From an uncultured Gemmatimonadales bacterium (GTDB taxonomy: Bacteria; Gemmatimonadota; Gemmatimonadetes; Gemmatimonadales; Gemmatimonadaceae), in contig CAWBZV010000010.1 of the NCBI GenBank assembly GCA_963793305.1, positions 64,001 to 128,000 of the forward strand: DNA of 64,000 nt, written 5' to 3'. The position numbers and the translations under genes are program-made. Every line of letters starts with the position of its first letter. Within the stretch, counting starts at the first letter, position 1. A model generated the notes under the pieces. The model saw only the letters and a program-made list of their open reading frames with translations. It ran no database searches and was not told the origin of the DNA. Shown one piece after another: positions 28,447 through 64,000 of the stretch.

Positions 28447-28900
28447 GTGCCTCACGCCAATCAGCCCCAGATCCACGAGCTCGATCGCGCCGCCTGCGAG
28501 GCGATCCTCGCGCGGCACTCGGTCGGAACGTCTCGCATTCTGGCAGCACAATCGCGTCGATATCGAACCGCTGAACTATGTGTTCGTCGACGGATGGATC
28601 TACGGCCGCACGTCACCCGGCCGGAAGATCGAGGCCGTCGGGCACCAACACCATGTCGCGTTCGAGGTCGACGAAGTCGCCGGCCCGTTCGATTGGCGCA
28701 GCGTCGTCGTCCACGGGGGCTGGTACCGGATGGAAACAGCTCCGCCGGCTGAGTTGGCGCACTGGGAGCGAGGAGTCGATGCGCTGCGCAAGCTCGTGCC
28801 GGGGAGCCTCAGCGAGAGTGACCCCGTCCCGTTCCGAACCGTCGTCTTCCGCATTCACGCGGCCGAGATCACCGGCCGGGAATGCTCGCCACCTCGCTAG
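28447..28900 (+). CDS. Pyridoxamine-5'-phosphate-oxidase-like flavin-binding protein; frameshift near 28527
   Basis: ELDRAACEAILARHSVG joined to RLAF...P.NYV...YGRTSPGRK...VAFEVDE...WRSVVVHG. Confidence 0.85.
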
Positions 28901-29564
28901 ACTCGGCGCTGACCTCGAGCCGATTCACGACCTCCGTCACACCGGGCGCATTGTACGCTGCCCGTTCGGCGTCACGGCGCTCGGCCATCGACCGGACGGT
29001 CCCGCGCAGCGTCACTCGTTCGCCGACCGCTTCGATCGCGATCCCGCTCACGTCCAGCCTCGAGTGCCGCAAGAGCGCCTTCTCGATTTCCCGCTTCACC
29101 TGACTCGCTGTCGGGATCGGCGGCACGACCACGATGTCGTTGGTGATCCCGCGAACACCAACCAAGTACGAGATCGAGCGCTCCGCGGATTTCCGCTGGT
29201 AGTGATACGGGACGGTGCCGCGCAGCCGAACCCACCCGTGCTCGACCGCCACGGCGACCGCGCCACGCGGGAGGAACGAATCCCATTCGATCGCCACCGC
29301 CGCCGCACGCGCAAGTGACTCATCCTCGGTCCGAAACGCGCTCGGCAGCTTGACTTCCAGCTCCGAGGCGACGGCGCGCACGCCCTTGACGCGTTCGACC
29401 GCCTCGATCGCGGCGTGCTTCTCGGCCAGACTCGGTAAGGACCCGGTCAGCGTGACGATGCCCTCCGACACCGTGACCCCGAGGCCCTTCTCGGTCACGC
29501 TTGGCTCCCAGAGAATCTCGTCGAGCACGTCGCGCTCGAGCTCCGCATCCGTGATCGACATCAT
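28869..29564 (-). CDS. Triple BON-domain (OsmY-like) protein
   Basis: Three repeats of V.L.G.V...GV..V.N.L.V. Confidence 0.92.
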   Translation of the reverse strand: MMSITDAELERDVLDEILWEPSVTEKGLGVTVSEGIVTLTGSLPSLAEKHAAIEAVERVKGVRAVASELEVKLPSAFRTEDESLARAAAVAIEWDSFLPRGAVAVAVEHGWVRLRGTVPYHYQRKSAERSISYLVGVRGITNDIVVVPPIPTASQVKREIEKALLRHSRLDVSGIAIEAVGERVTLRGTVRSMAERRDAERAAYNAPGVTEVVNRLEVSAESSEVASIPGR

Positions 29565-29986
29565 GTGAGCACCTCGCTGGTGATGCCCCGCACTCCGGGG
29601 ACGCACTCGAGCGCCTGCTCGACCAACTCGTAGGCCGCGGCGGATGCCACCCCACTCAAATTGACCCACCCGTGCTCGACGCGCGCAAACACGTCGGGTC
29701 GATCGGGGATCGTGTCGAGCGCCGCCACGATCGCATGCGCGATCGTCGTGTCGCTCAACGGCTGCACCGGCTCGCCGATGACGTGCACGGCGTCGGCGAG
29801 TGCTCGCACGCCCGGCACGGATGCCAGGACGCGCTCGAGCGCGGTCTTTTGCTCCTGGGTGGCGACATGTCCATTCAGCGTGACCACGCCGTCGGCGATC
29901 GACACAGCGATGTTTCTCCCCATTACACCGAGCTCGCGCTCGAGCGCCGTCACGATATCCACGTAGATCCTGTCGTCGGTCCACAT
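29561..29986 (-). CDS. Double BON-domain protein
   Basis: GVVTLNGHV...VPGVRAL and GWVNLSG...VPGVRGI. Confidence 0.85.
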   Translation of the reverse strand: MWTDDRIYVDIVTALERELGVMGRNIAVSIADGVVTLNGHVATQEQKTALERVLASVPGVRALADAVHVIGEPVQPLSDTTIAHAIVAALDTIPDRPDVFARVEHGWVNLSGVASAAAYELVEQALECVPGVRGITSEVLT

Positions 29987-30065
29987 ACGCTCCGTCCTCG
30001 CTAATGTGTGCGATCAACCTAGGGCGGCGCGTGCGTGGGCGGTGTCCGGCTGATCGCCTCACGCG

Positions 30066-30084
30066 TGTCGGGCCTTCCCCTACG
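30066..30084. promoter_or_regulatory. 19-bp palindromic operator
   Basis: T-GTCGGG-CCTTC-CCCTAC-G upstream of the BON pair, overlapping the regulator stop codon. Confidence 0.6.
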
Positions 30085-30742
30085 TCGCCGTGAGTAACCC
30101 GAGCTTGAGGGCAAAGCGGACGTAATCCGCCCAATGCGCGAGGCCGAGCTTCTCGTGCACGCGTTGCTTGTACGTGTCGACGGTCTTCGCGCTGATCGAG
30201 AGCTTCTCTCCGATCTCGGGCGCCGTATAGCCTTCCGCGGTGAGACGCAACACGTCCCGCTCGCGATCGCTCAACGATTCGTAGCGGTCGCGATCGACCT
30301 TCGCCGGATCCTTTCGCGTGAGCCCCTGCGCGAGCACCCGGGCGGCTGCTTGGCGGACGTAGAGGTCACCGTTCGCCACCCCACGGATCGCATCGATCAG
30401 CTCGCGATCCGCGGATGTCTTGACGACATAACCAGCCGCGCCAGCCTGCAGGATGGGGACGAGGTACTCCTCCTCGGTGTGCATCGTGAGGATGAGCACG
30501 CGCGGGCGCGGACCCTTCGCGACGATCTCCTTCGTCACCTGGAGCCCATCGCCATCTGGCATGTCGAGGTCGAGCACAATGACGTCCGGATCGCAGCGCT
30601 GGGCCATGGCGATCGCCTGAGCTCCTGTGGACGCCTCGCCGACGACGGCCATGTCCTTGGCCGTGGCCAGCACCGCCTTTACGCCCGCACGGACCACGGC
30701 ATGGTCGTCCGCCAATAGCACTCGGATCGTATCGCCCAACAT
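30080..30742 (-). CDS. NarL/LuxR-family response regulator
   Basis: REC domain (LADDH, LDLDMP, LTMH, GYVVK) plus LuxR HTH LSDRERDVLRL...ISAKTVDTY...KLGL. Confidence 0.95.
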   Translation of the reverse strand: MLGDTIRVLLADDHAVVRAGVKAVLATAKDMAVVGEASTGAQAIAMAQRCDPDVIVLDLDMPDGDGLQVTKEIVAKGPRPRVLILTMHTEEEYLVPILQAGAAGYVVKTSADRELIDAIRGVANGDLYVRQAAARVLAQGLTRKDPAKVDRDRYESLSDRERDVLRLTAEGYTAPEIGEKLSISAKTVDTYKQRVHEKLGLAHWADYVRFALKLGLLTAT

Positions 30743-30793
30743 TGGTTCCTCCCCGAAAGTGCTGGGAGAATAGTGAGCCGACGAGCCCGGGCT

Positions 30794-30812
30794 TGTCAGG
30801 TTCTCCCTGACA
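30794..30812. promoter_or_regulatory. Perfect 19-bp palindromic operator
   Basis: TGTCAGG-TTCTC-CCTGACA upstream of the response regulator and the divergent USP-kinase genes. Confidence 0.8.
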
Positions 30813-30832: not shown

Positions 30833-31639
30833 ATGCCACGTCGCCCAATTCTGCCGATTATGGGTACTGTGTCTCTCCTCTTGGTCGCAACCGACGGCCG
30901 CGAGTCCTCGGCCGGCGCCGTTCGCCTCGCGCGCCGGTTGGCCGAGTCGCATAGGAGCGACGTCGAGTTGCTGACGGTTGGCGACTCCAGATCCGGACGA
31001 TCCGTCCAGGCCCTCTTGGAAGCCCTCTTCGCCTCGCCCCCCACGTGGCCGCATACAATTGCGCCCGGAGAGATTGGCCCGGCACTCACTCGAATCAGTA
31101 GGGAGCGCGGCGCGTCCATGCTCCTCGTCGGCATGAAGCCGGGCTCGGAACGGCGAACGGCGGTCCGGTTCGCGAGCTTCGCACCCATTCCAGTGCTGGT
31201 CGTGCCCGCTGACGTGGCTGAGGAACCGCGACGGGCACTCCTGACCCTCGATTTCAGCCAGTCCAGCCTGCACGCCGCCACGGTCGCGTTCAAGTTGTTG
31301 GCTAAGCCTGCTCGCGCATTCATGATTTCGGCGGGTCCCAACATCGTGGGCGAGGACCCTGAACCTCACATCGCAGTCCTGTTCGACGCGGTCGAGAACA
31401 TGCTCGGGCTGGACCCTGATATCGCGATCACGCAGCACAGCGTTGCCGGCGAGACGGCTGAAGCGCTGCTCCGGGTCGCCGCGAGCCAGTCTGTCGACCT
31501 CATCTCGGTGGGCCGCTGTGGCCGCTCACATGCTACCTGCTCCAAGCCCGGCGGCATCGGCCGAGTGGCCCGGGCTATCGTCGCCTCCGCATCGTGCGCA
31601 GTGCTGATCGCCGCCTCGCCGAGTCTGCTGCCATCGTAG
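30833..31639 (+). CDS. Universal stress protein (tandem USP)
   Basis: LLVATDG, LDFS..S, DLISVGRCG...G.VARAIV...CAVLI. Confidence 0.85.
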   Translation: MPRRPILPIMGTVSLLLVATDGRESSAGAVRLARRLAESHRSDVELLTVGDSRSGRSVQALLEALFASPPTWPHTIAPGEIGPALTRISRERGASMLLVGMKPGSERRTAVRFASFAPIPVLVVPADVAEEPRRALLTLDFSQSSLHAATVAFKLLAKPARAFMISAGPNIVGEDPEPHIAVLFDAVENMLGLDPDIAITQHSVAGETAEALLRVAASQSVDLISVGRCGRSHATCSKPGGIGRVARAIVASASCAVLIAASPSLLPS

Positions 31640-31705: not shown

Positions 31706-34106
31706 GTGGCGATTCAACCCTCGCTGCTCATCACAGCATTTGAACAGGCGCCCGTCGCGATGCTCGTGCTGGATCCGGACGGATCCGTACAGGTCGCGAA
31801 CCCGCTGGCGCGCGAGTACCTCGCGGTCGAGCTCGCCGACGTGGGATCCGAGGCAGCTGCCTGGTGGCGCCGCGCCGTTCAACGGGCTGCGGAAGGATGC
31901 GTGGAAGTCAGCCAGGTCCAGGGATCAACCGGAGATCGCATTGTCGAATGGGTCATTCGACCTGTTCTGGACGCTGCCCGGAACCTCCTCGGTCTCACCG
32001 CCGAAGGTCAGGAGGTGACGGAAAGGCGGCGACTGGAGCACGAGGCACAGTTGCTCCTGCGGTTGGCGCTCGCCATTGGTCACACGGATTCGCTCGAGCT
32101 CGCGATCGCCGCGGCACTCCGGACCATTTGCGAGGCATCAGGGTGGGCCATGGGGGAGGCCTGGCTCCCTGATGGCGAGGGCGAGGCGACGCGTCTCGTA
32201 CGCGGCGGCCTGTGGACGGCACGAGATGCCAAGATCGAGTCGTTCGCCGCTCAAGGAACGGGCATCAGTTTCACGCGAGGAGATGGTCTCCCGGGTCAAG
32301 CGTGGGTGCGCGCCCAGCCAATGTGGGAACGCCCATTGAGCGCCGCGCGGACGTTCACCCGGGCGCCGCTCGCCGCCGCCGCCGGACTCAGGGCCGCGGT
32401 CGCAATCCCCGTGCTGTCGGGAGATGATGTGGTCGCCGTGCTCAGCTTTTATATGACGGATGCGCGGACCGACGATGCACGGCTGGCGCGCATCACGACC
32501 GCGGTCGCGACGCAACTCGGTCCGCTGATCATCCAGAAACGCGCCGAGGAAACACACCGGTTGGCGGAAGCGAAGCTCGGCGGCATCGTGTCGATCGCGC
32601 GTCGACGCGATCATCTCGATCGACGAGAACCGGCGCATCACGCTCTTCAACTGGGGTGCGGAGCAGATCTTCGGATACGCCGCGGACGAGGCACTCGGGC
32701 AGTCACTCGACATGCTGCTGCCACCCGCCGCCCGCGAGCGCCACGCGTCGCACATCGCGCAGTTCGCGACGTCATCACAAACCGCGCGCCGGATGGGCGA
32801 GCGGTCGCCGATCAACGGACAGCGGAAATCAGGCGAGATCTTTCCCTGCGAGGCGTCGATCTCGCGGTTCCGGGCCGGCGGACGCTGGACGTTCACGGTC
32901 ACGTTGCGCGACATCACGGACCGGCGGCGGACAGAGGAGGGCCTGCGCTTCCTCTCCGAAGCGGGCGCTCTCCTGAGCGACCTCATTCGAGACCCCGGAG
33001 CCCTCGAGCGCGTAGCGCAACGAGCCGTCCCGACGCTCGGCGATGTGTGCGTGATCGATCTCGCCGATGACGCGAGCATTACCACCGTCGCGGTCGCCGC
33101 GACCGATCCGGGTCGGGCCGACGCGATGCGAGCGGAACGCGAACGCGCGCCGCTCACGCGGGGCTCGGATGATCCCGTGATCGACGCGTTGCGCGACGGC
33201 GCCACGCGCCTGGTGCAGGATCATGGCGTGTTCGGCTCGCTGCTCGTCGTCCCACTTGTCGCCCAACAGCGAACGCTCGGCGCCATGAGCTTCGCGATGC
33301 TGCGTGGCGGACGGCGGCATGACCCGTCCTACATCGCACTCGCCGAGCAGCTCGCGGCCCGCGTCGCATTGGCGGTCGATGCCGCTGCGTTGTATCAGCG
33401 CACCCGCCAAGCCGTTGGCGCTCGCGATGAAGTCCTGGCTGTCGTCTCGCACGATCTCCGGAACCCCCTCAGCGCGATCAACATGTGCGTCAGCGCCCTG
33501 CGCGAATCCCAGGCCGATCCGGAGACGACGCGCGAGCTGCTGGGCACCGTCCGTGACTCGGCGACGCTCATGTCACGGATCATTCAAGACTTGCTGGATG
33601 TCGCCAGCATCGACGCCGGCAAGTTGTCGATCGAGCGGCGGCTGCAGCCCATTGCGCCCGTGCTCGGTCACGCGACGGCGATGTTCGAGGCCATAGCGGC
33701 CGAGAATCAGATCACGCTGCGCGAGGACGAGGAGCCGTCGCTCCCCAATGTCGTGATCGATGCCGAACGCGTGCTCCAAGTGCTGGCCAACCTGCTGCAC
33801 AACGCTTGCAAGTTCACGCCGGCCGGCGGCACCGTCCGCGTGCGCGCCGTCACGGTCGCGGACGCGGTCCAGATCTCCGTCTCGGACACGGGGCCCGGGA
33901 TCCCGCACGAGGATCTGCCCCGCGTGTTCGATCGATTCTGGCACGCCCGGCGCGCGGCCAAAATCCGGTCGACGGGCCTCGGACTGGCCATCGCCCGAGG
34001 CATCGTCGAAGCCCACGGCGGCCGGATCTGGGTCGAGAGCAGACCCGGCCAGGGCAGCACCTTCACGTTCACGCTCCCGACCAGCGCGGCGCCCGTTACG
34101 GCGTGA
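31706..34106 (+). CDS. PAS-GAF-PAS-GAF sensor histidine kinase; frameshift near 32600
   Basis: GDGLPG GAF, FNWGAEQIFGY PAS, VSHDLRNPL H-box, NLLHNACKF, DTGPGI, GLGLAI. Confidence 0.9.
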
Positions 34107-35334
34107 ACATGACGAGGGTCGAACTGGCGCCGCTCTGCACGTGCAGCGTCGCATCCCGACCGCTCCGCGCCGTGGACAAGCCGAGGGAATCCACGTGCCC
34201 GATCGCCCGCGTCAGGTGCCGCCGGGCCTCCGTCCCGTCGCTGAACATGAGATCGACGCGACCGTCGTGGTGATCGTACACGGCGCCACGAAACACCAGC
34301 CCGGCGCCCTGCATCTGCGCGCCGAACGCGGGATCATCGACCTCGATCATGGCCCGCCGGCCCGAGTTCCGCGCCGTGACGCCGTCGAGGAGTGCCGCCC
34401 ACAGCGCGCGCTCCGGCGCGGCCAGCCCGCCCATCGCACGCTCCAGCCGAAGCGCGCCAGCCGGCGTGAGCGGTGGACACACGAGGACCGTCGCGGGACA
34501 TCCGTGCAGCACGCTCGTTGCCGTGCTGCCGACGAACAGTCGCTGCAGGACGCCCGGCCCGTGTGTGCCGACCGCGACGAGATCGGCGCCGATCGTGCTC
34601 GCGCACTCGAGAATGCGGTCCACGACCGCGCCCGCGGCGACCTTCGATTCGATCGTGACATCGGCCGGTCGCTCGGCCTCCAACATGGTGCGCAAGCGCT
34701 CGAACGCCGCTTCCATCGCGTCAACGCTTTCGAATTCGGGGAGAGGCCGAACGTGGAACAGCGTCAGCGTGCCTCCGGGCTCGAGCAGTTGGAGCGCGAT
34801 CTCCGCTGCGCGAACGCTGGCCGGCCCGAAGTCGACCGCGACGAGGGCGCGACGGACCAGTCCTTTCCACGCCGGCGCCACCGACAAGACGGGTGCGTGC
34901 GCCACATGGAGCACCTGAGCGGCGCGACCCGATCGATGACGCGGCGTCGCCGCGAGCACGATCAGGCTCGCCGCATGCGCGTCGGCCGCCGAGGCGATCT
35001 CGCGCGCGGTCGAACCATATCGGACCTCGAGCGACCAGTCCGCGGATCGCAGCCCAACGCCCCCGAGCGCACGACGCACGTCGGCCTCGCGCACGCGTCG
35101 GCGCTCCTCCTCCAGCAGCGTCGGCATCGGCACATCACCCGCGCCATAGATCGGATACGTCTCCAGGACGGTCGCGACGATGAGCGGTGCGTGAAACCGC
35201 GCGATGAGCGCTCGCGCCGCATCGATCGATGCATCGGTTGCGTCATGACCATCCGTCGCGAGCACGATCGGCCCCGAGAACACACGCCGTTCGGCCGCCT
35301 CGGCGTCGAGTTGTTCCCTCACGATTGTTGACAT
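34096..35334 (-). CDS. Tandem USP with DUF5335-like C-terminal domain
   Basis: VLATDG, VAVDF, AVGTHG...LFVGSTA, then W..LLDGVTARN.GRR..IEVDD...YDHHD.RVDLM. Confidence 0.85.
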   Translation of the reverse strand: MSTIVREQLDAEAAERRVFSGPIVLATDGHDATDASIDAARALIARFHAPLIVATVLETYPIYGAGDVPMPTLLEEERRRVREADVRRALGGVGLRSADWSLEVRYGSTAREIASAADAHAASLIVLAATPRHRSGRAAQVLHVAHAPVLSVAPAWKGLVRRALVAVDFGPASVRAAEIALQLLEPGGTLTLFHVRPLPEFESVDAMEAAFERLRTMLEAERPADVTIESKVAAGAVVDRILECASTIGADLVAVGTHGPGVLQRLFVGSTATSVLHGCPATVLVCPPLTPAGALRLERAMGGLAAPERALWAALLDGVTARNSGRRAMIEVDDPAFGAQMQGAGLVFRGAVYDHHDGRVDLMFSDGTEARRHLTRAIGHVDSLGLSTARSGRDATLHVQSGASSTLVMFTP

Positions 35335-35345
35335 CGATCCTCCCA

Positions 35346-36812
35346 TCAGACGGGTTCGGGAATCAGATATTGCCAGAGGCCAAGCGCGCGGAGTTGCGGC
35401 GCCTTCTTATGGACGTGCCCGTGCATCCGGGTCAGGACATCGTCGAGCAACGCGATCGCCTCGCCGACATACGGTCCCTTGTTCAGCATGACACACTCTG
35501 CCCGCGCGGACATGGCCGCATCGGTCACCTCGGCGCGCGACGGCGTTCCGCGCTTGACGAACCGCTCGAGCACCTGCGTCGCCCAGATGACCGGCACGTG
35601 CGCGGCCTCGCACACCCACAGGATCTCTTCCTGGATCTCGGCCAGTCGCTCATAGCCGATCTCGACGGCGAGGTCGCCACGGGCGATCATCACGCCCAGT
35701 GGCTGTCGCGACGCGGCCGCCGCGATGATCCCGGGCAGCTCATGCAGCGCGGCGCGCGCCTCGAGCTTGACGATGAGTGGCGGGAGGGGTGCGCCGGATG
35801 GGAGTCGAGATGTGAGCTCGCGTTGGAGGATGGCGATGTCGCTCGGGCTTTCGACGAACGAGTACCCGATGATGTCGGCGAAGCCCAGCACCGCGTCGAG
35901 ATCGGCGAGATCCTTGTCCGTGAGCGGTGCGAGCCCCAGCGATACGCCGGGCACGTTGATGCCCTGATCGGCGAGGATATGCTCGCCCTTCGCGCGCGTG
36001 TCGGTGACCCGGACGACCGCACCTTCGGGAGACACGGCGTGGATCACACCGCCCAGCTTCCCATCATTGATCCAGATCGTTGTGCCGACGACGAGCTTGT
36101 CGAGCACATCGGGGACGACAGCCTCGTGTCGCAGGAGAAAGGTCTGGCCTGGGAGGAAGCGATTCCCGCCCTCCGGCGTGATCGCCTTGGCCAGGCGGAG
36201 CTTGCGTCCCGCCAGATCGACGAGCACGCGACAGGCACGGAACTCGCACCTCGCGGCACGCCGGACGTTGGCGGCCATAGCCGACCAGACCTCGGCGTCA
36301 TCATGCGCGCAATTGATGCGCGCGCAATCCATGCCGGCGCGCACCAGATCGACGGCCACTTCCTCGTCGGTCGCGGCCTCGGGCGGCAGCGTGACCATGA
36401 TGCGCACCGAGCGCTCCGGCGGCATGGGGCCGAAGAGCTCCTCGGTGTTGCGCATCAAACGCCGTGGGCCGCGCTCGAACAGATGGCGATGCGGCCGCAC
36501 GACCCCGTCGGGGGCCACACCGGCGATCGCGCCGAGCGTTGCCGCGACGGCATCGAGCGTCGGCATGACGTGGGACTCGCTGTGGCCGAGGGTCGACACA
36601 CCGAGCGGCGCCAACGCCGCTTGCAGCACCCGCAGATCGTGACCGCGAAGGGCGAGATACGTGGCGAGGTTGCTCGCACTGACGGCGAAGGCGCGCCGGC
36701 AACCGTCGGTGGTCAGCATCGCGTGGATCGCGCGCGCCTCATCCGCCACGGTGTGGCGCATGTCGAGAAACGCCGCGAGGATCTCGTCAGGAGTGTCCAG
36801 TTGCTGTGTCAT
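35346..36812 (-). CDS. pyk: Pyruvate kinase (variant with N-terminal extension)
   Basis: RIMVTLP, ARINCAH, DLAGRKLR, MIARGDLAVE, WATQVLE, PSRAEVTD, CVMLNKG. Confidence 0.9.
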   Translation of the reverse strand: MTQQLDTPDEILAAFLDMRHTVADEARAIHAMLTTDGCRRAFAVSASNLATYLALRGHDLRVLQAALAPLGVSTLGHSESHVMPTLDAVAATLGAIAGVAPDGVVRPHRHLFERGPRRLMRNTEELFGPMPPERSVRIMVTLPPEAATDEEVAVDLVRAGMDCARINCAHDDAEVWSAMAANVRRAARCEFRACRVLVDLAGRKLRLAKAITPEGGNRFLPGQTFLLRHEAVVPDVLDKLVVGTTIWINDGKLGGVIHAVSPEGAVVRVTDTRAKGEHILADQGINVPGVSLGLAPLTDKDLADLDAVLGFADIIGYSFVESPSDIAILQRELTSRLPSGAPLPPLIVKLEARAALHELPGIIAAAASRQPLGVMIARGDLAVEIGYERLAEIQEEILWVCEAAHVPVIWATQVLERFVKRGTPSRAEVTDAAMSARAECVMLNKGPYVGEAIALLDDVLTRMHGHVHKKAPQLRALGLWQYLIPEPV

Positions 36813-37917: not shown

Positions 37918-38376
37918 ATGTTTACCACCACTCTGCAACGCCGGTTCTTCCCACGCGAAGCCGACGCACTCTCGACGCCATTTGGGCGGCTGTTTCCAAG
38001 GGCGCTGACGTTCGAGCCAGAGCTCGTGACCTATCCCGCGGCCGAGGTCGTAGATGCGGAGAAGGAGTTCATCGTGACCCTCGAGGTTCCGGGACTCGTG
38101 AAGGACGACGTCACGATCAATTTCGAGGACGGTGTCCTCTCGATCGCTGGTGAGAAGAAGGAAGAGGCGAAGGACGAGAACCAGAAGTACTATGTGTTCG
38201 AGCGGTCGTACGGCGCTTTCCAGCGCGCGTTCACGTTCGCCACGCCGGTCGATGTCGAGAAGATCGTGGCGACGATGAAGCACGGCGTGCTGACGCTCCA
38301 CCTGCCGAAAATCACGGCCCAGAAGGAGCTCGGGAAGAAGATCCTGATCAGCGAGACGCCCGCAGTCAAAGCGTAA
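37918..38376 (+). CDS. Hsp20/alpha-crystallin small heat-shock protein
   Basis: EVPGL.KDDV, GVLSIAGEK, ERSYGAFQRAF, HGVLTLHLPK; GGAGG RBS. Confidence 0.95.
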   Translation: MFTTTLQRRFFPREADALSTPFGRLFPRALTFEPELVTYPAAEVVDAEKEFIVTLEVPGLVKDDVTINFEDGVLSIAGEKKEEAKDENQKYYVFERSYGAFQRAFTFATPVDVEKIVATMKHGVLTLHLPKITAQKELGKKILISETPAVKA

Positions 38377-56351: not shown

Positions 56352-56385
56352 ACGGCCTCAATATCGACCCCCTCCCACTGGACAT

Positions 56386-56404
56386 TGTCAGGCATTGCCC
56401 GACA
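56386..56404. promoter_or_regulatory. 19-bp palindromic operator
   Basis: T-GTCAGG-CATTG-CCCGAC-A between the divergent transpeptidase and DUF4389 genes. Confidence 0.7.
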
Positions 56405-56486
56405 CGGTGAGCGGAGTCCCTGGACACCGCCCGATGCTGGCCGATCGTAACATGGAGCCCATGAAAACTCTCGCTCGCCTCCCCGT

Positions 56487-57137
56487 ATGAGCGACGCGTA
56501 TCCAGTCGAGGTGCACGTCGAGTCGGCCACGGAGAATCGCAACCGACTCACGACGGCTTTCCGCTTGATCCTCGGATTGCCCCATCTGATCCTCGTCGGA
56601 GGACCCGCGGCGGCGGTGCTCTCGTGGACCTCGCGGCCGCACGCCGGCCAGGATCACATCACGTGGAGCGCGGGCGGCGGACTGCTCGGCGCCGTCGCCG
56701 TCATGGCCGCGATCATCGCGTGGTTCGCGATCGTGTTCACGGGGAAAGCGCCGCAAGGGCTGTGGGACCTCGCTGCGTTCTATCTCCGCTGGCGCACCCG
56801 CGCGATCACGTACCTGGCGTTGCTGCGCGACGAGTACCCGCCGTTCGGCGACGGACCATATCCCGTTACGCTTGATCTCACCGGGCCCGATGTGCCACGA
56901 GACCGCGTGAAGATCGGCTTTCGGATCATCCTCGCTATTCCACAGCTCATCGTGCTGTGGCTCCTCGGCATTGGCTGGGCGTGCGCGACCGTGATCGCGT
57001 GGTTCGCGATTCTCCTGACTGGTCGGTACCCCGAGACGCTGTATCGCTTCGGCGTCGGCGCGTTGCGGTGGAATCTGCGGGTCGACGCCTATCTGTTGCT
57101 CGTCACCGATGCATACCCACCGTTCTCGCTCGACTGA
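56487..57137 (+). CDS. Tandem DUF4389 membrane protein
   Basis: Two repeats FR.IL..P...WFAI..TG..P..L....LRW..R...Y..L..D.YPPF. Confidence 0.88.
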   Translation: MSDAYPVEVHVESATENRNRLTTAFRLILGLPHLILVGGPAAAVLSWTSRPHAGQDHITWSAGGGLLGAVAVMAAIIAWFAIVFTGKAPQGLWDLAAFYLRWRTRAITYLALLRDEYPPFGDGPYPVTLDLTGPDVPRDRVKIGFRIILAIPQLIVLWLLGIGWACATVIAWFAILLTGRYPETLYRFGVGALRWNLRVDAYLLLVTDAYPPFSLD

Positions 57138-57147
57138 CGGCGCGCTC

Positions 57148-57605
57148 TTGCCGATCGCCCTGCCCAAACCGGCACTGCAAGGTGGCACAACGGTGGCGTG
57201 GGGGTTGCTCCTCCGACGCACCGTTCGCGAGATCAGCGACAGCGCTAGCAGGCGTTCGAGCATCGTCTGCTGCCGGTCGTCGCGCACGACCTTCGACCGC
57301 TCGCGATCGGCCACGGCCAATCCACGATCAGCGACGAGGCGCCCGTTCGCCTGATTTTCGTTGCCGACATCGACAAGCTGGCGCACACGGCGGGGTATCA
57401 AGAGCCGGGTCTCCGCGATCCGGAGGTCCAGCGGTCCTAGTATTACGTCGACACCGGCCTCATTGCGGCGAACGTGTATCTGTTCGCTGCCTCGACCGGG
57501 CTCGCGGCCTGGTTTCACAACTGCGACAAGCCCGCGCTCACCTCAGCGCTTCATCTTCGCGCTCAGTCGCATTGCCTCAGCGACTCTTTCGAGTCGAGGC
57601 CGTAG
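57148..57605 (+). pseudogene. SagB/ThcOx-type nitroreductase remnant
   Basis: IALPKP..QGG...RRTVREIS, then in a second frame APVRLIFVAD...QRS*YYVDTGLIAANVYLFAAS.GL; in-frame TAG at 57438 and an internal segment missing. Confidence 0.75.
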
Positions 57606-57654
57606 CGGAGAATGCGCGACAGCGTGTGAATGGCTTACTGGCACCGGCAATCAG

Positions 57655-58155
57655 CTACCACTTGCTGTCGCGGATGCCGATCCAATACGCCACCTGATCA
57701 ACGGCGACGTGGCCGGCGAAGCTCATCACGAGGACGACGGCCACGTCGGCCCAGGTGAACATCGCGAACGGCCACACGAGTGCGAGGGCGCCGATCACGA
57801 AATCGAGCTGATCCGCCGGCATCCAACGCGCGCCGGGCGGGATGCCGATCCGGCGCTTGACGGCGCTCTTGAGGGCGTCGCCGCCCAGAGCGCCCATGCC
57901 GAACAAGATGCCGACGGCAAGCCAGGATGAGTCTCGAATGAGCCACCCGGACCAGTCCAGTCGGTGTTGGAGGTACACGACGACGATGGCGACAATCACG
58001 CCGGCGGCAAACCCGATCACCGTCTTGTGCGCTCCGAACCAGCGCGCATTGATCGGGCGATTCCACCACGGCCAGTACTTGACGAACGGAGGCGCCATGT
58101 TCGCCGCGTATGCCGGCGTCATCGCGAATGCCAGCTGCGCGAGGCGATACAGCAC
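57655..58155 (-). CDS. CarS-like (CDP-archaeol synthase family, DUF46) membrane protein
   Basis: PAYAANMAP, FG.HKT..GF, GD..KS..KRR.GI.PG, DQLDF. Confidence 0.8.
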   Translation of the reverse strand: MLYRLAQLAFAMTPAYAANMAPPFVKYWPWWNRPINARWFGAHKTVIGFAAGVIVAIVVVYLQHRLDWSGWLIRDSSWLAVGILFGMGALGGDALKSAVKRRIGIPPGARWMPADQLDFVIGALALVWPFAMFTWADVAVVLVMSFAGHVAVDQVAYWIGIRDSKW

Positions 58156-58159
58156 GCTG

Positions 58160-59092
58160 TCAGCGATTCGGCGGCGCGACCAGCACCGAGCACCCCGCAC
58201 GCCGCAGCACGCCGTCGGCCACGCTACCGAGTCGCAACCGCTCGACGAACCCCTTGCCGTGCGTCCCGAGTGCGATCAGCTCGACGCCGTGCGCTTCGCA
58301 GAACGCCGACAGCGCGTGCACGGGATCGCCCTCGAGCAGGTGCACGGTGAGCAGGCGGGGCGCACTCACGGACAGAGCGTCAGCCCACGCGGCAAGGCGC
58401 GACCGGAGCGCATCAGTCGCCGGCCCGACGTGGAGGACGTGCACACGGGCGTCGTCGCTGGCGAGCTCCAGCGCGACGTGAGCCGCCTGAGTTGCCGCAG
58501 GCTCGAAATCTGTCGCGAGCGCGACAACAGTCGTCCGGACCTGTGCGTCTGGCGCGACGGCGAGGACCGGCGTGTGAGCGTAATGGATGACGCCGATCGC
58601 CGTCTCGAGACCGAGCAGGCGGTCGACGGTCGTGTGCTCCCCAATGCCGACCACGATCAGCGATGCCGCGACTGCCTCCGCGTGGGCGGTGATCCCCTCG
58701 GCCGGCGCACCAGTCTCGACCCGGACGCGGGCCACGACCCCCGGCACGCTGTCCTCGACCTGTCGGCGGACGCGCGCGGCGGTGGCCTTTGCCGCGGCGT
58801 CATGGACAGCTTCGACGTACCGGACGTACGCGATGCCCGGAGTCAGCGCCGGCCGAAGAACCGCCACAACATCCAGTAGGCGACGAGTGCGGAAGGCGAA
58901 CATGCCACCGACTCGTATCGCGGCGTCAGAGCTCGGATCGCCACACGTGGCGACGACGACCGGTCCGCCGGCCGCGGAGACGTCCCGGACGGCAGCGACT
59001 TCGTTATCGGCCGACGATTCGCTGCTCACTGACCGACGGTTCCATTTGACCTTGGCCAGCACATCCCTTTCCAGATTCGCATCCGTTGTCAT
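58160..59092 (-). CDS. Universal stress protein with BON-like N-terminal stub
   Basis: VVATCG, LLGLETA, LATDF, IALGTHG...LGSVADGVLR; N-terminus MTTDANLERDVL. Confidence 0.85.
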   Translation of the reverse strand: MTTDANLERDVLAKVKWNRRSVSSESSADNEVAAVRDVSAAGGPVVVATCGDPSSDAAIRVGGMFAFRTRRLLDVVAVLRPALTPGIAYVRYVEAVHDAAAKATAARVRRQVEDSVPGVVARVRVETGAPAEGITAHAEAVAASLIVVGIGEHTTVDRLLGLETAIGVIHYAHTPVLAVAPDAQVRTTVVALATDFEPAATQAAHVALELASDDARVHVLHVGPATDALRSRLAAWADALSVSAPRLLTVHLLEGDPVHALSAFCEAHGVELIALGTHGKGFVERLRLGSVADGVLRRAGCSVLVAPPNR

Positions 59093-59251
59093 CGCAATAT
59101 CCTCGCTCCAATGTCTGATGGACGCCAAGCGTCACCACGCGCCCGCCGGAGTGCGCGAGGACGTCCATTCGATCGGCCAGCGGGGTGATGGGGATGGAAC
59201 GCCGCACCTCGCGGGACATCTCCTCTAAGAGCTGATGCATGATCTCCGTCG

Positions 59252-60505
59252 TCATGGCGCAAATGTCATGAGAGTCGAGCCCAAACCGCTTCGCACGTGG
59301 AGCGCCTCGTCACGCCCGTTGGACCGAGTCACGAGTCCCAACGACTCGACATTGGCGATCGTGCGCGTCAGATGGCGTCTTCCCTCTCCATCGTCGTTCA
59401 ACATGAGATCGACCCGGCGGTCGCGATGATCGTAGGCCGCGCCGCGGAACGTGAGACCGACACCCTGAACTTGCGCTCCAATCGTCGGGTCGTCGATTTC
59501 GATATTGACCCGTCTCCCGGCATTCCGGGCCGTCACGCCGTCGAGCAACCTGCTCCACATCTCCCGATCGCTCGTGGACACACTCCCCATCGCACGACGC
59601 AGTGCGAGTGCCTCGGTGGGAAGCGGCGGAGGGCTCGCGAGGACCGTGCACACCGCTCCGTGGAGCAGGCCCGTCGCTGAACTGCCAACGAACAGGCGCT
59701 CGAGGATCGTCGGACCATGGGTACCGACCGCGATCAGGTCCACGTTCGAGTCGTGCGCGCATTGCAGGACGTGCTCGACGACCGCGCCGCGCGCCACGCG
59801 GGTATCGATCGTCACGTTCTCCGGCGCCTGCGCTTTGAGCACGAGCAGCAGCCGATCGAATGCCTTGCTCATCTCGTCGATGGCGCCGAGCTCGGGCACG
59901 GGCCGGACGTGCAGCAGCGTCAGCGCACCGCCCGGCTCGAGGAGCTGCAGCGCGATCTCCGCCGCGCGAACGCTGGGAGGCGCGAAGTCGACCGCGACGA
60001 TCGCTCGATGGACAATGCCGTTCCATTGAGGAGCCACGGACAGCACCGGGCAGTCCGCGAACCGCAAAACGTGCGCGGCCCGTTCGCCCGCGATGGTCGA
60101 CCACGGTCGATGGTGCGGGTGAGCCGCCAATACAATGAGGCTCGCGCGGTGCTCGTGCGCGAGTCCGGCGATGCCTCGAGCCACCGACCCGTACAGCATC
60201 TGCAGGGACCATTCGTCACTTCCGAGGCCGAACGCGGTCACCCAGCGCCGCACATGCGCCTCACGCGCTCCGCGCTGGAGCTCGTCCATGAACATGGGGA
60301 GCGCGACATCTCCGGTGCCGTAAATCGGCAAGGGCTCCAAGACCGTCGCGACCTCGAGCGGCTGCTTCAGCCGCGTAGCCAGCCGCCGGGCGGTTACGAG
60401 CGACGCATGGGTCCGATCGGCGCCGTCTGTCGCCAGAACAACTGGGCCGGCACGCAGCGCAGACTGACGTGTTTTTGCTTGGGTCTGCTCCACTGTCGTT
60501 GACAC
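59252..60505 (-). CDS. Tandem USP with DUF5335-like C-terminal domain
   Basis: Full-length paralog of 34096-35334. Confidence 0.87.
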   Translation of the reverse strand: MSTTVEQTQAKTRQSALRAGPVVLATDGADRTHASLVTARRLATRLKQPLEVATVLEPLPIYGTGDVALPMFMDELQRGAREAHVRRWVTAFGLGSDEWSLQMLYGSVARGIAGLAHEHRASLIVLAAHPHHRPWSTIAGERAAHVLRFADCPVLSVAPQWNGIVHRAIVAVDFAPPSVRAAEIALQLLEPGGALTLLHVRPVPELGAIDEMSKAFDRLLLVLKAQAPENVTIDTRVARGAVVEHVLQCAHDSNVDLIAVGTHGPTILERLFVGSSATGLLHGAVCTVLASPPPLPTEALALRRAMGSVSTSDREMWSRLLDGVTARNAGRRVNIEIDDPTIGAQVQGVGLTFRGAAYDHRDRRVDLMLNDDGEGRRHLTRTIANVESLGLVTRSNGRDEALHVRSGLGSTLMTFAP

Positions 60506-60560
60506 GGGTCACCAACCATTAGAAGGTGCCCTCAGGATGCAGCGGAGAGGCTCGCGAAGA

Positions 60561-60602
60561 TGTCGGCTAAGGGCCTGACAGCGCGTCGGGGACTTGCTGA
60601 CA
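60561..60602. promoter_or_regulatory. Two tandem operators
   Basis: TGTCGGC-TAAGGG-CCTGACA (60561, six-base spacer) and C-GTCGGG-GACTT-GCTGAC-A (60584); right arms are 22 bp apart. Confidence 0.65.
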
Positions 60603-60623
60603 CCGACCACCGCTCCGCGAGGA

Positions 60624-60824
60624 TCACTTGCGTTGCGCCGTTGCGGCGGCGCGTCCCAGTTCATCCAGCATGCGGTGATACGTCGCCGCATCGATTTCGC
60701 CGCGCGCGTATCGGCTCTTGACGATCTCGATCGGGTCCGCGGTGCGCGAGGCGCGCAGACGCTGGAGGATCACCCACGCGATGGCGATCGCGAGCACCAG
60801 CCAAGCGCCCCAGAGAAAGATCAT
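60624..60824 (-). CDS. Small SHOCT-domain membrane protein
   Basis: TM helix plus PIEIVKSRYARGEID...Y; GGAG RBS. Confidence 0.8.
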   Translation of the reverse strand: MIFLWGAWLVLAIAIAWVILQRLRASRTADPIEIVKSRYARGEIDAATYHRMLDELGRAAATAQRK

Positions 60825-60914
60825 CCCTCTCCCCCATGCATCCCGGCACGCCGGGTACCAGAATGGGTTGCAGCATAGGGCGAAGCAGGATCAGGATCCC
60901 GCGACCGGCTTGCG

Positions 60915-61574
60915 TCACGACGGCTCGACCGTCAGCTGATTGTCCACGCGCCTGGTGCCCGGCGCCGCCCACGCCGCCCGTTCAGCCTCGCGACGCTCGT
61001 CGAACGACCTGACCGTCCCGCGCAGCGTCACCGTGTGCCCCTCGGTTTCGATCCCGATCTGCTCCGCATCGACCCTGGCGTTGCGCTCCAGGGCTGCCTC
61101 GATGTCGGCGCGGATGGCTACCGGCGACGCCTCGGATGGCGACACCGTAATCAAGTTCGTGATGGCCCGCACACCGATGAGGTTCCGGACGGCAGCTTCC
61201 GCCGCGTCGCGCTCGAAGACCGTGTCCACAGTGCCGTCGAGCGTCAGACACCCGCGCTCGGCGCGGATTTTTACCCGATCCTTGGGCACGAAGAGATCCC
61301 AGTCGAGGAGGTTCGCGGCCGAGCGGGCGAGGTCCCCGTCCGACTGCTCGAACTTATGCGGTAGCTCGACCTGTAGCTCTTGTGCGACGCCACGCACGCC
61401 TTTGACGCGTTCCGCGGCTTGCGCGGCCGCGTACTTCTCGCCGTAGCTCGGCACGCAGCCACGCAACGTCACCACACCATCCTTCACACTCACACCAATG
61501 CCCTTCTCCGAAACGCTCGGCTCAAAGCGAAGCGACTCGATGATGTCGTGCTGCAAGTGCGCATCCGTCTTCAT
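60915..61574 (-). CDS. Triple BON-domain (OsmY-like) protein
   Basis: Paralog of 28869-29564 (EPSV.EKG.GV.V..G.VTL.G, ERVKGVR.VA.EL.V.LP). Confidence 0.92.
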   Translation of the reverse strand: MKTDAHLQHDIIESLRFEPSVSEKGIGVSVKDGVVTLRGCVPSYGEKYAAAQAAERVKGVRGVAQELQVELPHKFEQSDGDLARSAANLLDWDLFVPKDRVKIRAERGCLTLDGTVDTVFERDAAEAAVRNLIGVRAITNLITVSPSEASPVAIRADIEAALERNARVDAEQIGIETEGHTVTLRGTVRSFDERREAERAAWAAPGTRRVDNQLTVEPS

Positions 61575-61678
61575 CTGATCCTCCGCTCCCGCATTCGCAT
61601 GATGACGCGCCATGCGAGGAAGCTGACGAACAGGAGACCGACGGCCGACAGCACGACTACGCCAATGTTCTGCAGCAC
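61571..61678 (-). CDS. Putative 35-aa single-TM microprotein
   Basis: GGAG RBS, GTG start, MLQNIGVVVLSAVGLLFVSFLAWRVIMRMRERRIR*, ATGA overlap with the BON gene; below the ORF-track cutoff. Confidence 0.55.
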   Translation of the reverse strand: MLQNIGVVVLSAVGLLFVSFLAWRVIMRMRERRIR

Positions 61679-61730
61679 AATGCACTCCGATCAGGTTGTA
61701 TTGAGCCTACCGCGGGCGGTCGGGGACGAC

Positions 61731-61771
61731 TATCGGGTAGTCGGCGACAGCGTGTGAGGCATCACCTGACA
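61731..61771. promoter_or_regulatory. Two tandem 19-bp operators, 22-bp spacing
   Basis: T-ATCGGG-TAGTC-GGCGAC-A (61731) and T-GTGAGG-CATCA-CCTGAC-A (61753). Confidence 0.65.
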
Positions 61772-61804
61772 CCGCCCAACCCCGAGGTTTATACGCTACG
61801 AAGC

Positions 61805-62287
61805 ATGAAGACACTCATCGTTTATTACTCACGTTCCGGGCACACGCGCCGCGTGGCCGTCGCGCTCGCTGCATCGCTACAAGCGGACCTGGAAGAGATC
61901 ACGGAACCGCGTGGTCGTCAGGGGATCTTCGGGTACCTTCGCTCGGCGAGGGAAGCGATCAAGCGCATTCCGGTGCGCATTACACCGACGCGCGATCCGG
62001 CGCTGTACGACCTCGTCGTGATCGGCACGCCCGTGTGGGCGGCATCCCTGTCCTCCCCCGTGCGGGCCTACCTGATCGCCAATCGCGATCGCTTGGGCGA
62101 CATGGCGTTCTTCTGCACGATGGGCGGACGCGGCAGCGCAAACGTGTTCGCGCAGATGCAGAAGCTGACGCGCAGGCCGCCGCGCGACACGATCGCTGTC
62201 ACGGATCGCGAGATCACCTCTGGCGTGTGTTGGGCGCGCCTCGAAGCCTTCGCGGCGACGATCGCGCCGTTCGTGCCCACAACCTGA
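61805..62287 (+). CDS. Flavodoxin-family protein
   Basis: YYSRSGHT, YDLVVIGTPVWA, AFFCTMGG. Confidence 0.9.
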   Translation: MKTLIVYYSRSGHTRRVAVALAASLQADLEEITEPRGRQGIFGYLRSAREAIKRIPVRITPTRDPALYDLVVIGTPVWAASLSSPVRAYLIANRDRLGDMAFFCTMGGRGSANVFAQMQKLTRRPPRDTIAVTDREITSGVCWARLEAFAATIAPFVPTT

Positions 62288-62308
62288 GACCTTCACCGTA
62301 TCCTCACG

Positions 62309-62575
62309 ATGTCACGACTGCTCGCTTTCATCATGATCGCGGGCTGCTGGGCCACCAGCGCTGCGCAGGTTCCCACGCCACCCGATGCCAATGATCCGCC
62401 AGGCCGGGTCGGACGCTTGTCGTTCATCGAAGGCGCGGTGTCCTTCCGGCCGGCCGCCGGGGACACGTGGGCGATACCACAGCCGAACCGAGCGGTTACG
62501 ACCGGCGATGAGCTGTGGGTGGATGTGTCCAGCGTCGAGACCGTGCCGGGCGTGCTGTCGGTGAAGTGCGGGTAG
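62309..62575 (+). pseudogene. Truncated N-terminus of a secreted FecR-like/DUF6600-type protein
   Basis: Signal peptide plus DPPGRVGRLSFIEG.VSF.PA...W....NR.VTTGD.LW, followed by an early stop. Confidence 0.6.
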
Positions 62576-62637
62576 ATAATGGCGGCTTCGGTCTCGTTGC
62601 TGCCCGCGACACAGAGAACCGGACCCGCGCTCGCGTC

Positions 62638-63015
62638 ATGCCACGTGAGTTGTCGACCGGGGCGGCGGACGATCTCGTACGGGCAACGGAGCTCGCGCGC
62701 GAGATGGTCATGCGCTACGGCATGGACGCGACCGTTGGCAACGCGGTCTATCGCGACGGGTCGATTGCGCCGGAATCGCGACTGTACAGCGAGCAGACGG
62801 CGCGCGATATCGAGTCCGCCGTCCGGGGCTTGCTGCAAGGGGCGCTCGATCGCGCCATTGCGATTTTGACGCTCAACCGGACTGCGCTCGACGACGGCGC
62901 GAAGCGCTTGCTCGACCGCGAGACGCTGACGCGCGACCAACTGCCGTCCGTCACGCCGGCGCCGGAGGAAGAGGCCCCCCGCGTCAGTGTCAGCGTCAGG
63001 GAACCCCTGACATAG
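62638..63015 (+). pseudogene. ftsH: C-terminal fragment of an FtsH (peptidase M41) gene
   Basis: STGAADDL.RAT.LAR.MV.RYGM...YSEQTA..I...LLDRETL; no AAA domain and no HExxH upstream. Confidence 0.75.
62994..63012. promoter_or_regulatory. 19-bp palindromic operator
   Basis: C-GTCAGG-GAACC-CCTGAC-A upstream of nirK. Confidence 0.75.
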
Positions 63016-63067
63016 AACGCGGTGAGCCCCGACGCCGCAGGGGTTCGCGGTTCGCGATTGTTGGACC

Positions 63068-64000
63068 ATGCGTACATCTACTCACAAACTCATCTCCCTT
63101 GTCCTTATCGTCGTCGCGCTGATCGTCGGCGGCTTCTCGCTCCTCGGCGCCGTGCGCCGCGGGGGTCCGATCGAGTCCGTGGACTTCGACCGCGTGCAGC
63201 GCTCGACCTCTCCCGCCTACGATGCTCGGCTCACGAGACCATCGGACGCACGGGTCAAAGCGTTTCGCATCCCGATCAAGGACGCGACGATCGAGATCGC
63301 GGCCGGCGTCACGTATCACGCCTGGACATTCGGTGGCACGGTCCCCGGCCCGGTGCTTCGCGTTCGCGTCGGCGACGAAGTCCGTATTACGGTGGTGAAC
63401 GAGTCACCACTGCCCCACTCGATCGACTTCCACGCAGCCCGGATTCCGGCAAACGTCGCGTATCGCATGATCATGCCGCACGACTCCGTGGCCTTCACGT
63501 TCACGGCGCGCGATGCCGGCGCATTCATGGTGCACTGCGGTACCCCCCCGGTGCTCATGCACATCATGCAGGGCATGTATCTCCCGATCATCGTCGACCC
63601 CCGAGACGGCTGGCCGACCGCAGCGGACAAGGAGTTCGTGTTGGTCGAGAGTGAGTTCTACAACAAAGGACAGGACGCCGACTGGCCCGCGGCGATGGCG
63701 AAGAACGCCAGCTATGTCGTCTTCAATGGCCGGGCGTTCCAATACAGGGACATCCCCCTCCACGTCGATGTCGGTGATCGCGTGCGATTGTTCGTGGTGA
63801 ACGCCGGGCCGAACGCGACCAGCGACTTTCACATCGTCGGCGCCGTCTTCGACCACGTATATCCCAATGGCGATCCGTCGCATGGGCTGAGCGGCGTGCA
63901 GACCTATGCTGTCCCGCCTGGCGGCGGCGCGGTCTTCGAGACCGTGTTCGACCGAGGCGCCAGTGGCGAGGGCTTGTATCCGTTCGTCACGCACAGCTTC
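63068..64000 (+). CDS. nirK: Copper-containing nitrite reductase, runs off right window edge
   Basis: Manual translation (absent from ORF track): N-terminal hydrophobic anchor, WTFGGTVPGP, PHSIDFHAA, VHCGTPPVLMHIMQGM, NAGPN..SDFHIVG, YPFVTHSF. Confidence 0.88.
   Translation, partial: MRTSTHKLISLVLIVVALIVGGFSLLGAVRRGGPIESVDFDRVQRSTSPAYDARLTRPSDARVKAFRIPIKDATIEIAAGVTYHAWTFGGTVPGPVLRVRVGDEVRITVVNESPLPHSIDFHAARIPANVAYRMIMPHDSVAFTFTARDAGAFMVHCGTPPVLMHIMQGMYLPIIVDPRDGWPTAADKEFVLVESEFYNKGQDADWPAAMAKNASYVVFNGRAFQYRDIPLHVDVGDRVRLFVVNAGPNATSDFHIVGAVFDHVYPNGDPSHGLSGVQTYAVPPGGGAVFETVFDRGASGEGLYPFVTHSF

Follow-up and report, generated by a model that had tools for sequence, protein, structure and literature searches.

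A stretch of 64,000 nucleotides (nt) from a Gemmatimonadaceae metagenome-assembled genome (MAG), here called the window (C10:64001-128000 of the analysed genome, G000), carries an island of stress and redox genes about 68 kb long that extends beyond the window. We consider it probable that a low-oxygen regulon spans the Gemmatimonadaceae and has this island among its outputs, a haem-PAS sensor kinase signalling to a NarL-family response regulator that acts at promoters marked by a 19-bp box. The regulator and the kinase are likely to be the family's low-oxygen switch, undescribed so far, with DNA binding, phosphotransfer and gas sensing predicted from sequence features. Conserved across relatives are the regulator, the sensor and the box, not the cargo, and it is this wiring of regulator, sensor and operator that is new, rather than a DosR-like cluster in a diderm. 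In the literature we found no description of the regulator-kinase pair, of the box, or of a regulator or operator for Gemmatimonadota nosZ, a point on which subscription papers may bear.

A blind palindrome scan of positions 28,001-64,000 gave TGTCAG-N7-CTGACA as its top result, and a matrix seeded with this window palindrome and trained on the loci of 37 relatives only yielded the 19-bp palindrome YGTCRGGGRWYCCCYGACR (18.5 bits). The matrix finds 20 sites in the window and six more up to C10:135110, i.e., 26 in the island, together with 16 on contig C23 (described below) and 47, mostly weak, in the other 5.6 Mb of the genome; of 93 sites, 83 fall between genes, where about 20% would be expected to. 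Positions 28,001-64,000 hold 11 sites, compared with 0-1 for 30 column-shuffled matrices, which upholds the proposal, made in an earlier reading of this DNA (the original prediction), that the cluster uses an operator different from that of the Mycobacterium tuberculosis regulator DosR. In a held-out set of 40 other regulator loci there are 41 sites, against 1-24 (median 4) for shuffled matrices, and a box is present within 2.6 kb upstream of the regulator operon for 24 of 39 held-out regulators, compared with 5 downstream and 1 far upstream. Genome-wide, the box pattern exceeds its reversed control in 36 regulator-positive genomes (187 versus 93) and not in 114 negative ones (260 versus 269). 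The island shows no enrichment of Dev, FNR, CRP, CooA or UvrY boxes or of variants with a spacer of 6 or 8, save for a slight excess at spacer 8 (4 versus 1.1), and UvrY-type N6 boxes number zero there. Counting exact matches to the pattern in 41 relatives gave numbers too small to use.

The boxes have a tandem layout, with a weaker second box at +22/23 and further second boxes at +44/45, and a -10-like hexamer (TAnnnT) lies 20-22 or 42-44 nt 3' of the box. The 77 held-out sites repeat both the second-box spacing and the -10 offsets (of 66 hexamers, 15 fall in the peaks, where 5.3 would be expected), and because the hexamers stand at fixed offsets downstream, the proximal box would sit near -42. 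Elsewhere in the genome, two strong tandem boxes (C3:567079-567120; L067) lie just 3' of a DUF167 gene, any other called gene being more than 400 nt away, an arrangement that is repeated on C23 and could drive a small RNA or a short open reading frame.

The predicted binder of the box is the NarL-family regulator, whose recognition helix, KTVDTYKQR, is nearly invariant across relatives and resembles that of EvgA. The protein falls below every named cut-off (MctR, 166 bits; UvrY, 161.5 against a cut-off of 280; NarL, 152; FixJ, 75.5 against the NF006900 cut-off of 255), and in rankings of PDB matches DevR is third for the whole protein, behind VraR and NarL, and stands behind EsrB, SsrB and EvgA for the DNA-binding domain. 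Occurrence was surveyed in 61 genomes of the family and 151 of the phylum, samples in which related genomes are not independent. The regulator gene has the same GC content as its host, and an orthologue is found in 52 of the 61 family genomes, among them the unpublished genome G012, which also enters the exact-pattern and CRP tallies and on which no claim depends. In the phylum sample the regulator occurs in 37 of 151 genomes, the haem-PAS sensor in 29 and both in 27, and they are at most 11 kb apart in 23 of these 27. No match at 1e-72 was found in 201 genomes of an Acidobacteriota-centred sample, which had no positive control. The correlation between regulator distances and kinase distances (r = 0.66, 41 loci) was not used, since shared ancestry explains it. 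Some loci depart from the common pattern: regulators are duplicated in tandem in L025, L026, L030 and L034, the second copy in the first three having an altered helix (KTVNTYK) that may read a different box, and in genus g35 (L093, L108, L109, L112) the regulator has no box or sensor nearby, yet ccoN in one g35 genome has a box (L136).

Targets in relatives bear on the link to oxygen. Because G000 has neither ccoN nor nosZ above cut-off, these two genes provide an independent test. The cbb3 oxidase gene ccoN has a box within 300 nt in 15 of 22 genomes at 13 bits or more and in 20 of 22 at 12 bits or more, where shuffles average 0.05; of the remaining two, one has a box before a regulator-ccoN run, and the last has none within 1.5 kb and an FNR-like site instead. 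For clade II nosZ, a box lies within 1.5 kb in 14 of 27 genomes (19 of 27 at 12 bits or more), mostly about 250 nt before the model start, compared with none inside the gene in any of the 27 and an average of 0.43 for shuffles. Sites of the FNR/CRP type are found upstream of one of the 22 ccoN and none of the 27 nosZ genes. Furthermore, the regulator is present in all 22 ccoN and all 27 nosZ genomes, and the nine family genomes that lack it have neither gene. In Gemmatimonas phototrophica grown at 10% rather than 21% O2, ccoN (log2 1.8-2.3) and one universal stress protein (USP) gene (2.0-2.4) are up, and hemN and nitronate monooxygenase are also induced (PMC11406998). That strain is not linked to any searched genome, and the word 'motif' is absent from the main text of that paper. 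In our family sample hemN is present in 7 of 61 genomes. Plasmid 1 of the cultured strain Gemmatirosa kalamazoonensis KBS708 has a 55% identical regulator homologue, five boxes, USP genes and nosZ within 20 kb, together with the second kinase described below, a PNPOx gene and a phosphoenolpyruvate (PEP)-synthase-type gene; no strong box stands directly before nosZ, and the plasmid was not counted as independent.

The original prediction placed a NarL-type regulator next to a USP and a GAF kinase. The regulator gene is indeed divergent from the USP and kinase genes, however, the catalytic core of the kinase is HisKA, not HisKA_3, and the protein carries neither a receiver nor an HPt domain. What is conserved in it is a predicted haem PAS of FixL type (at about 32580-32936 of the window), not a GAF. 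Among 20 regulator-adjacent kinases, GAF domains come and go and one PAS is always kept, and the best PDB matches of this PAS are FixL (6.6e-20) and DosP; the whole kinase scores under the FixL cut-off, and the PAS has one weak viral match. In FixL, roles are known for the proximal His, which is the haem ligand, and for a distal Arg. All 20 aligned kinases keep a His at the position of this ligand, as well as a Met and an Arg in the FG loop. Of 21 held-out PAS matches, 19 have the His; L095 is truncated by the gene caller, and L097, a false match without the His, was dropped, which leaves 20 of the 40 loci. Kinase orthologues in G003, G005 and L006 are single genes of 778-845 aa.

A second kinase, with two transmembrane segments, HAMP and HisKA_3 (2TM-HAMP-HisKA_3), precedes the regulator in 17 training loci and stands immediately before it in 22 of the 40 held-out ones, and such a HisKA_3 kinase is the class-typical partner. 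The regulator might thus bind the box and receive its signal from membrane or redox state via this kinase, or respond to NO or CO, which haem PAS domains also bind, the haem kinase serving another partner or acting only as a phosphatase; the frequency of copper oxidases, NirK-like genes and nosZ among the targets would fit. We regard this as unlikely. No orthologue of the second kinase was found in G000, G003, G005, G001 or G002 of this genus (best match about 30% identity), G000, G003 and G005 nevertheless have many boxes, and all five HisKA_3 kinases of G000 adjoin other NarL-type regulators. In L016, L019 and L020 the second kinase, still in the regulator's operon, has degenerate ATPase (ATP-binding) motifs, and ccoN responds to O2 alone (PMC11406998).

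Binding of the box by a CRP/FNR-family protein, such as that encoded at C10:138117 just past the island, with the two-component pair merely a target as in the lxa locus (see below) or FixK regulons, appears very unlikely. A box near -42 would also suit a class II CRP/FNR site, a CRP gene adjoins both the island and C23, and a distant CRP (about 30% identity) is widespread in the family; the TGTCA-N9-TGACA spacing is, however, unlike CRP geometry, and the island has no enrichment of FNR (2 versus 1.4 expected), CRP (1 versus 0.9) or CooA (2 versus 0.9) consensus sites. Of the 21 genomes with a box before ccoN, 12 lack a close homologue of the island CRP (four have no match at 1e-15), CRP occurs in one of 40 regulator loci, and the CRP gene has no box upstream. 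The island CRP was rejected as the box binder, as its gene does not track the box. It is highly improbable that the box marks a general stationary-phase or energy-stress regulon with no tie to oxygen: in many bacteria USP, Hsp20 and BON genes belong to the general stress response, and the O2 response of G. phototrophica is small, but the most consistent box targets are the cbb3 oxidase and nosZ, and the co-occurring sensor is FixL-like.

Several observations weigh against a regulon that responds to oxygen through this pair. The matrix was seeded with the consensus seen in the window itself, 15 of 39 held-out regulators have no strong box, nor do the Hsp20 and PEP-synthase operons of the window, and 8 of 27 nosZ genes lack a box even at 12 bits. 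The sensor is missing, at the threshold used, from 10 of 37 regulator-positive genomes of the phylum sample, and in genus g35 it is encoded far from the regulator, which has no box near it. The invariant Arg of the PAS aligns one position off the distal Arg of FixL; at 32599, where the kinase gene is split, run X3 has cover that does not correct the frameshift; and a HisKA kinase that directly serves a NarL/UvrY-type regulator is, to our knowledge, atypical. Co-occurrence of the regulator with ccoN (22/22) and nosZ (27/27) is modest evidence, because the genomes are related and 52 of the 61 have the regulator anyway. In G. phototrophica at 10% O2, only 41 genes changed and four of five USP genes did not (PMC11406998).

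In the regulon proposed here, haem would be held by the invariant His, and release of O2 would turn the kinase on, as in FixL. The HisKA-class kinase would phosphorylate the regulator directly, and in most relatives the co-encoded 2TM-HAMP-HisKA_3 kinase, lacking in this genus, may be a second input or a phosphatase. Phosphorylated dimers would then bind the strong box and the weaker, in-phase box, the proximal one overlapping -35 from its position near -42, and recruit sigma-70 polymerase; the box before the regulator predicts autoregulation by positive feedback. Output would differ by genome: in this one it would consist of USPs, Hsp20 and BON proteins together with glycolytic and PEP enzymes, and would probably take in part of the cytochrome block, whereas in relatives it includes the cbb3 oxidase and the clade II N2O reductase. 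We lean slightly towards a wider claim, that the pair is the master oxygen switch of the Gemmatimonadaceae. One undescribed 19-bp operator would then directly run cbb3, clade II nosZ and a survival set resembling that of DosR; FNR would have no part in it, and the HisKA kinase would cross the usual class boundary to phosphorylate a UvrY/EvgA-like regulator.

Taken as a whole, the island system is predicted to work like DosR and to sense like FixL, yet belongs to neither. DosS is a haem-GAF protein with HisKA_3, whereas the island sensor is a haem-PAS protein with HisKA; the box has 19 bp and a GTCRGG half-site, against 18 bp and GGGACT for the Dev box (searches gave 42 versus 43 and 14 versus 19 expected). 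The island, despite its USPs, has no Acg above cut-off and no PfkB, and the predicted regulon of the relatives includes cbb3 and nosZ. Kinase class, sensor domain and box thus all differ, and orthology to DosS/DosR is not supported. The broader idea, in the original prediction, of a co-regulated low-oxygen stress set that works like DosR is, in predicted terms, sustained by the haem sensor kinase, the NarL-family activator, the box before the regulator and the tandem boxes near -42. DosS/DosT-DosR (DevR) and Streptomyces OsdKR likewise couple a haem gas sensor to a directly acting NarL-family activator, often with two kinases per regulator (PMC3177182, PMC5069765, PMC11876180), and DosR shares the strong and weak tandem boxes, 3 bp apart and in helical phase near -42, and the predicted autoregulation (PMC3177182), as well as USP, Hsp20, phosphoribosyltransferase (PRT)/esterase and PNPOx-like cargo. 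Transfer of a true DosSR regulon from Actinomycetota is scarcely credible: the PRT and the esterase are 50% and 60% identical to a fused 681-aa Rhodococcus plasmid protein, the promoter layout is like the DevR P/S boxes at -42.5/-63.5 (PMC3177182) and DevR is the third-best PDB match of the whole regulator, but the PAS-haem/HisKA kinase, the unenriched Dev-box cores, the missing Acg and PfkB, and a regulator that tracks the family with host-like GC all speak against it.

A clustered, low-O2-induced set is known from lxa of Burkholderia cenocepacia, which has six USPs, an alpha-crystallin, two BON proteins, a nitroreductase, SulP, a cation ATPase and an ABC exporter, and which its authors already likened to the DosR regulon (PMC3721108). 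Neither the diderm setting of such a set nor its envelope additions, both pointed out in the original prediction, are therefore new. The island resembles lxa in its clustered USP/Hsp20/BON/SulP/ATPase cargo in a diderm, in a nitroreductase, an ABC exporter, a cytochrome c and a Zn protease, and in having a shared promoter motif; the lxa motif is, however, of the FNR/Anr type (TGA-N6-TCA; PMC3721108), whereas the island has a dyad of 19 bp that goes with a NarL-family regulator and a haem-PAS kinase. PfkA, pyruvate kinase, PEP synthase and L,D-transpeptidase in the island stand against a ribokinase, a class II ribonucleotide reductase and polyhydroxyalkanoate genes in lxa (PMC3721108). On a Cupriavidus megaplasmid, ten of the island's families lie within 41 kb; five FNR-type sites accompany them, and the island's box is absent.

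FixL-FixJ(-FixK), known from rhizobia, Caulobacter and Burkholderia, shares the haem PAS on a HisKA kinase and control of cbb3 and nosZ at low O2; FixK2 reportedly activates nosRZ. The island regulator is not FixJ, there is no FixK/FNR step, with the predicted box directly before ccoN and nosZ, and the island kinase has extra GAF and PAS domains and is joined in relatives by the second kinase. UvrY/GacA and EvgA share the recognition helix (KTVxTY) and a TGTxAG-type half-site in a head-to-head palindrome, UvrY binding an 18-bp dyad, TGTAAG-N6-CTTACA (PMC4682653). The island box, in contrast, has a spacer of 7, not 6, the regulator scores under the UvrY cut-off, there is no hybrid BarA/EvgS phosphorelay, and the targets are not small RNAs. 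Myxococcus NmpRSTU is likewise a multi-kinase O2-sensing system over USP, P-type ATPase and oxygen-use genes, but works through an NtrC-type sigma-54 activator, a GCGCA-N5-TGCGC box and a protoglobin-type sensor (PMC11841059).

Boxes run from 3,247 to C10:135,110 (window offset about 71,100), and the island therefore includes SulP, malic enzyme and the cytochrome block; the genes are clustered as originally predicted, in a box-bearing block about twice as long as was proposed (Table 1). Gene families were called by Pfam/NCBIfam, which identified nine USP genes, four BON genes, Hsp20, a PNPOx-like protein, a PRT, MacAB, a YkuD L,D-transpeptidase and SulP, so that Hsp20, tandem USPs, PNPOx-like protein, SulP at 3281, MacAB, BON and L,D-transpeptidase stand as first named; PDB searches for USP and Hsp20 gave family-level matches only. 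Other assignments held in part. The phosphofructokinase is present, but is PfkA (PF00365; NF002872 above its cut-off), not of the ribokinase/PfkB type. A nitroreductase-fold gene was seen correctly, but the window copy is a broken SagB-type remnant and the intact gene lies just outside the window (C10:130545-131276); neither passes the Acg cut-off. Two broken Acg-like genes below cut-off lie off the island (C3:963184-963854, C3:1263938-1264720). The PRT, esterase and hydrolase families likened to Rv2030c and Rv0571c are there and fit at family level the domain architectures that we assume for those proteins, but as three separate genes rather than fusions, each matching parts of proteins fused elsewhere, including a Salipiger (plasmid) triple fusion (45-53%). 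Splitting of PRT and esterase by a frameshift was rejected: stand-alone esterases of about 447 aa fill the top 120 matches, and G005 and C23 share the same two genes. Erythromycin resistance was also rejected, the esterase being far under the Ere cut-offs (54.6 versus 750 bits). Clustering of the cargo, which the prediction expected to be conserved, is not: in the 40 held-out regulator loci, USP occurs in 13 and Hsp20, EreA-like and SulP genes in one each.

Table 1 Features of the island. Positions are those of the window, unless prefixed C10 (contig).
Feature	Position	Strand	Boxes and remarks
Box between aldehyde dehydrogenase and SulP, left end of island	3247..3265		22.6 bits
SulP-STAS transporter	3281..4963	+	
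Two tandem boxes ahead of malic enzyme	5214..5254		22 bp apart
Malic enzyme	5277..6923	+	
Cytochrome c and two-domain multicopper oxidase	8284..9766	-	Boxes at 8727, 9876
NiFe hydrogenase, multihaem cytochromes, Rieske/cytochrome b block	10772..25819	-	Boxes at 16557, 21479, 22915, (upstream) 25909
ccmF, ccmE (cytochrome c maturation)	25847..28400	-	
Box between ccmE and PNPOx-like gene	28414..28432		23.1 bits
PNPOx-like protein (PF12900)	28447..28900	+	Assembly frameshift at 28527
Two BON-domain genes	28869..29986	-	Box at 30066
NarL/LuxR-family response regulator	30080..30742	-	220 aa
19-bp box upstream of regulator, common to divergent USP	30794..30812		TAnnnT 21 nt downstream
Tandem USP	30833..31639	+	
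PAS-GAF-haemPAS-GAF-HisKA-HATPase sensor kinase	31706..34106	+	Split at 32599 by assembly error
USP-USP-DUF5335, pyruvate kinase, HemG-like flavodoxin	34096..37791	-	Weak box at 37824 (11.3 bits)
Hsp20 / alpha-crystallin	37918..38376	+	
Four USP genes: 38483 (-), 39728 (+), 42244 (+), 43125 (+)	within 38483..43970		Assembly frameshifts 42369, 42930 in the gene at 42244
Hypothetical, BON gene, cupredoxin, beside the four USPs	within 38483..43970		Boxes at 39433, 41179, 42134 in this stretch, USPs included
PEP synthase, PfkA, TT1426-type PRT, erythromycin-esterase-family protein	43967..49306	+	Assembly frameshift 45179 in PEP synthase
PRT	47304-47981		Adjoins erythromycin-esterase-family gene 47978-49306
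USP, DUF4136 (-); MacA and MacB-type exporter (+)	49315..54167		Box at 50817
DLH-type hydrolase (54196-54864), L,D-transpeptidase (-); DUF4389 (+)	54196..57137		Box at 56386
Broken SagB-type nitroreductase remnant	57109..57620	+	~180-bp deletion, internal stop
CarS-like gene, two USPs, SHOCT, BON (-); flavodoxin (+)	57655..62287		Boxes at 60584, 61753
Box and NirK-like copper oxidase (gene at 63068)	62994..64000	+	Box at 62994; below NirK cut-off
Island past window: P-type ATPase, nitroreductase, three BON genes			Final box C10:135110

Several features of the island deserve a separate mention. The Tat-type two-domain multicopper oxidase at 8741-9766, for which the label NirK was withdrawn, is the regulator's commonest non-kinase neighbour in relatives. 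The region 6896-25819 holds a beta-barrel-like hypothetical gene, multihaem cytochromes, a Rieske/cytochrome b pair and a membrane NiFe hydrogenase, with a box in several promoters; the promoter of the hydrogenase lacks any site that reaches 10 bits. At 57655-58155 this bacterial stress island has a CarS-like gene (CDP-archaeol synthase family), below the curated NCBIfam cut-off. At 62309-63015 an apparent DUF6600-type N-terminus stands beside an FtsH C-terminal fragment, probably a deletion scar, and a truncated LigD primase-polymerase follows at C10:129960. Much of the island, along with parts of C3 and C5, recurs as an 83-88% copy on contig C23 (52 kb; L064-L066). Of the 58 genes of this contig, 37 are matched by a twin elsewhere in the genome, and the last three are single-copy. 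C23 may come from a sibling, binned here by mistake, or be a paralogous island, and it was not counted as independent.

The GC content is even across the window (63-69%), and an Rfam scan of it gave zero matches. The closest relatives of the regulator are from Gemmatimonadaceae/Gemmatimonadales MAGs (86-89% identity), and the host is therefore taken to be a diderm. Near-identical DNA occurs in several metagenome runs, among them libraries of DNA and RNA from peat; the RNA contigs, which come from two peat libraries, match parts of the island with 0-2 differences and neither show transcription nor rank genes. None of the five frameshifts is seen in short-read contigs, with four of four runs correcting 45179, three correcting 42930, two each correcting 28527 and 32599, and one correcting 42369; they are therefore assembly errors. 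That the split genes are pseudogenes was rejected for these five breaks on the same contigs and on intact orthologues.

That the cargo of USP, Hsp20, BON and PRT/esterase genes is here wired to one more kind of sensor speaks for convergent recruitment rather than descent from DosR. Gemmatimonadota account for some of the most abundant nosZ genes of soils, and their cultured members are believed to get through oxic-anoxic transitions by using N2O (PMC10581226, PMC9530729). With a candidate sensor, regulator and box in hand, the way in which clade II nosZ is turned on in these N2O sinks becomes directly testable.

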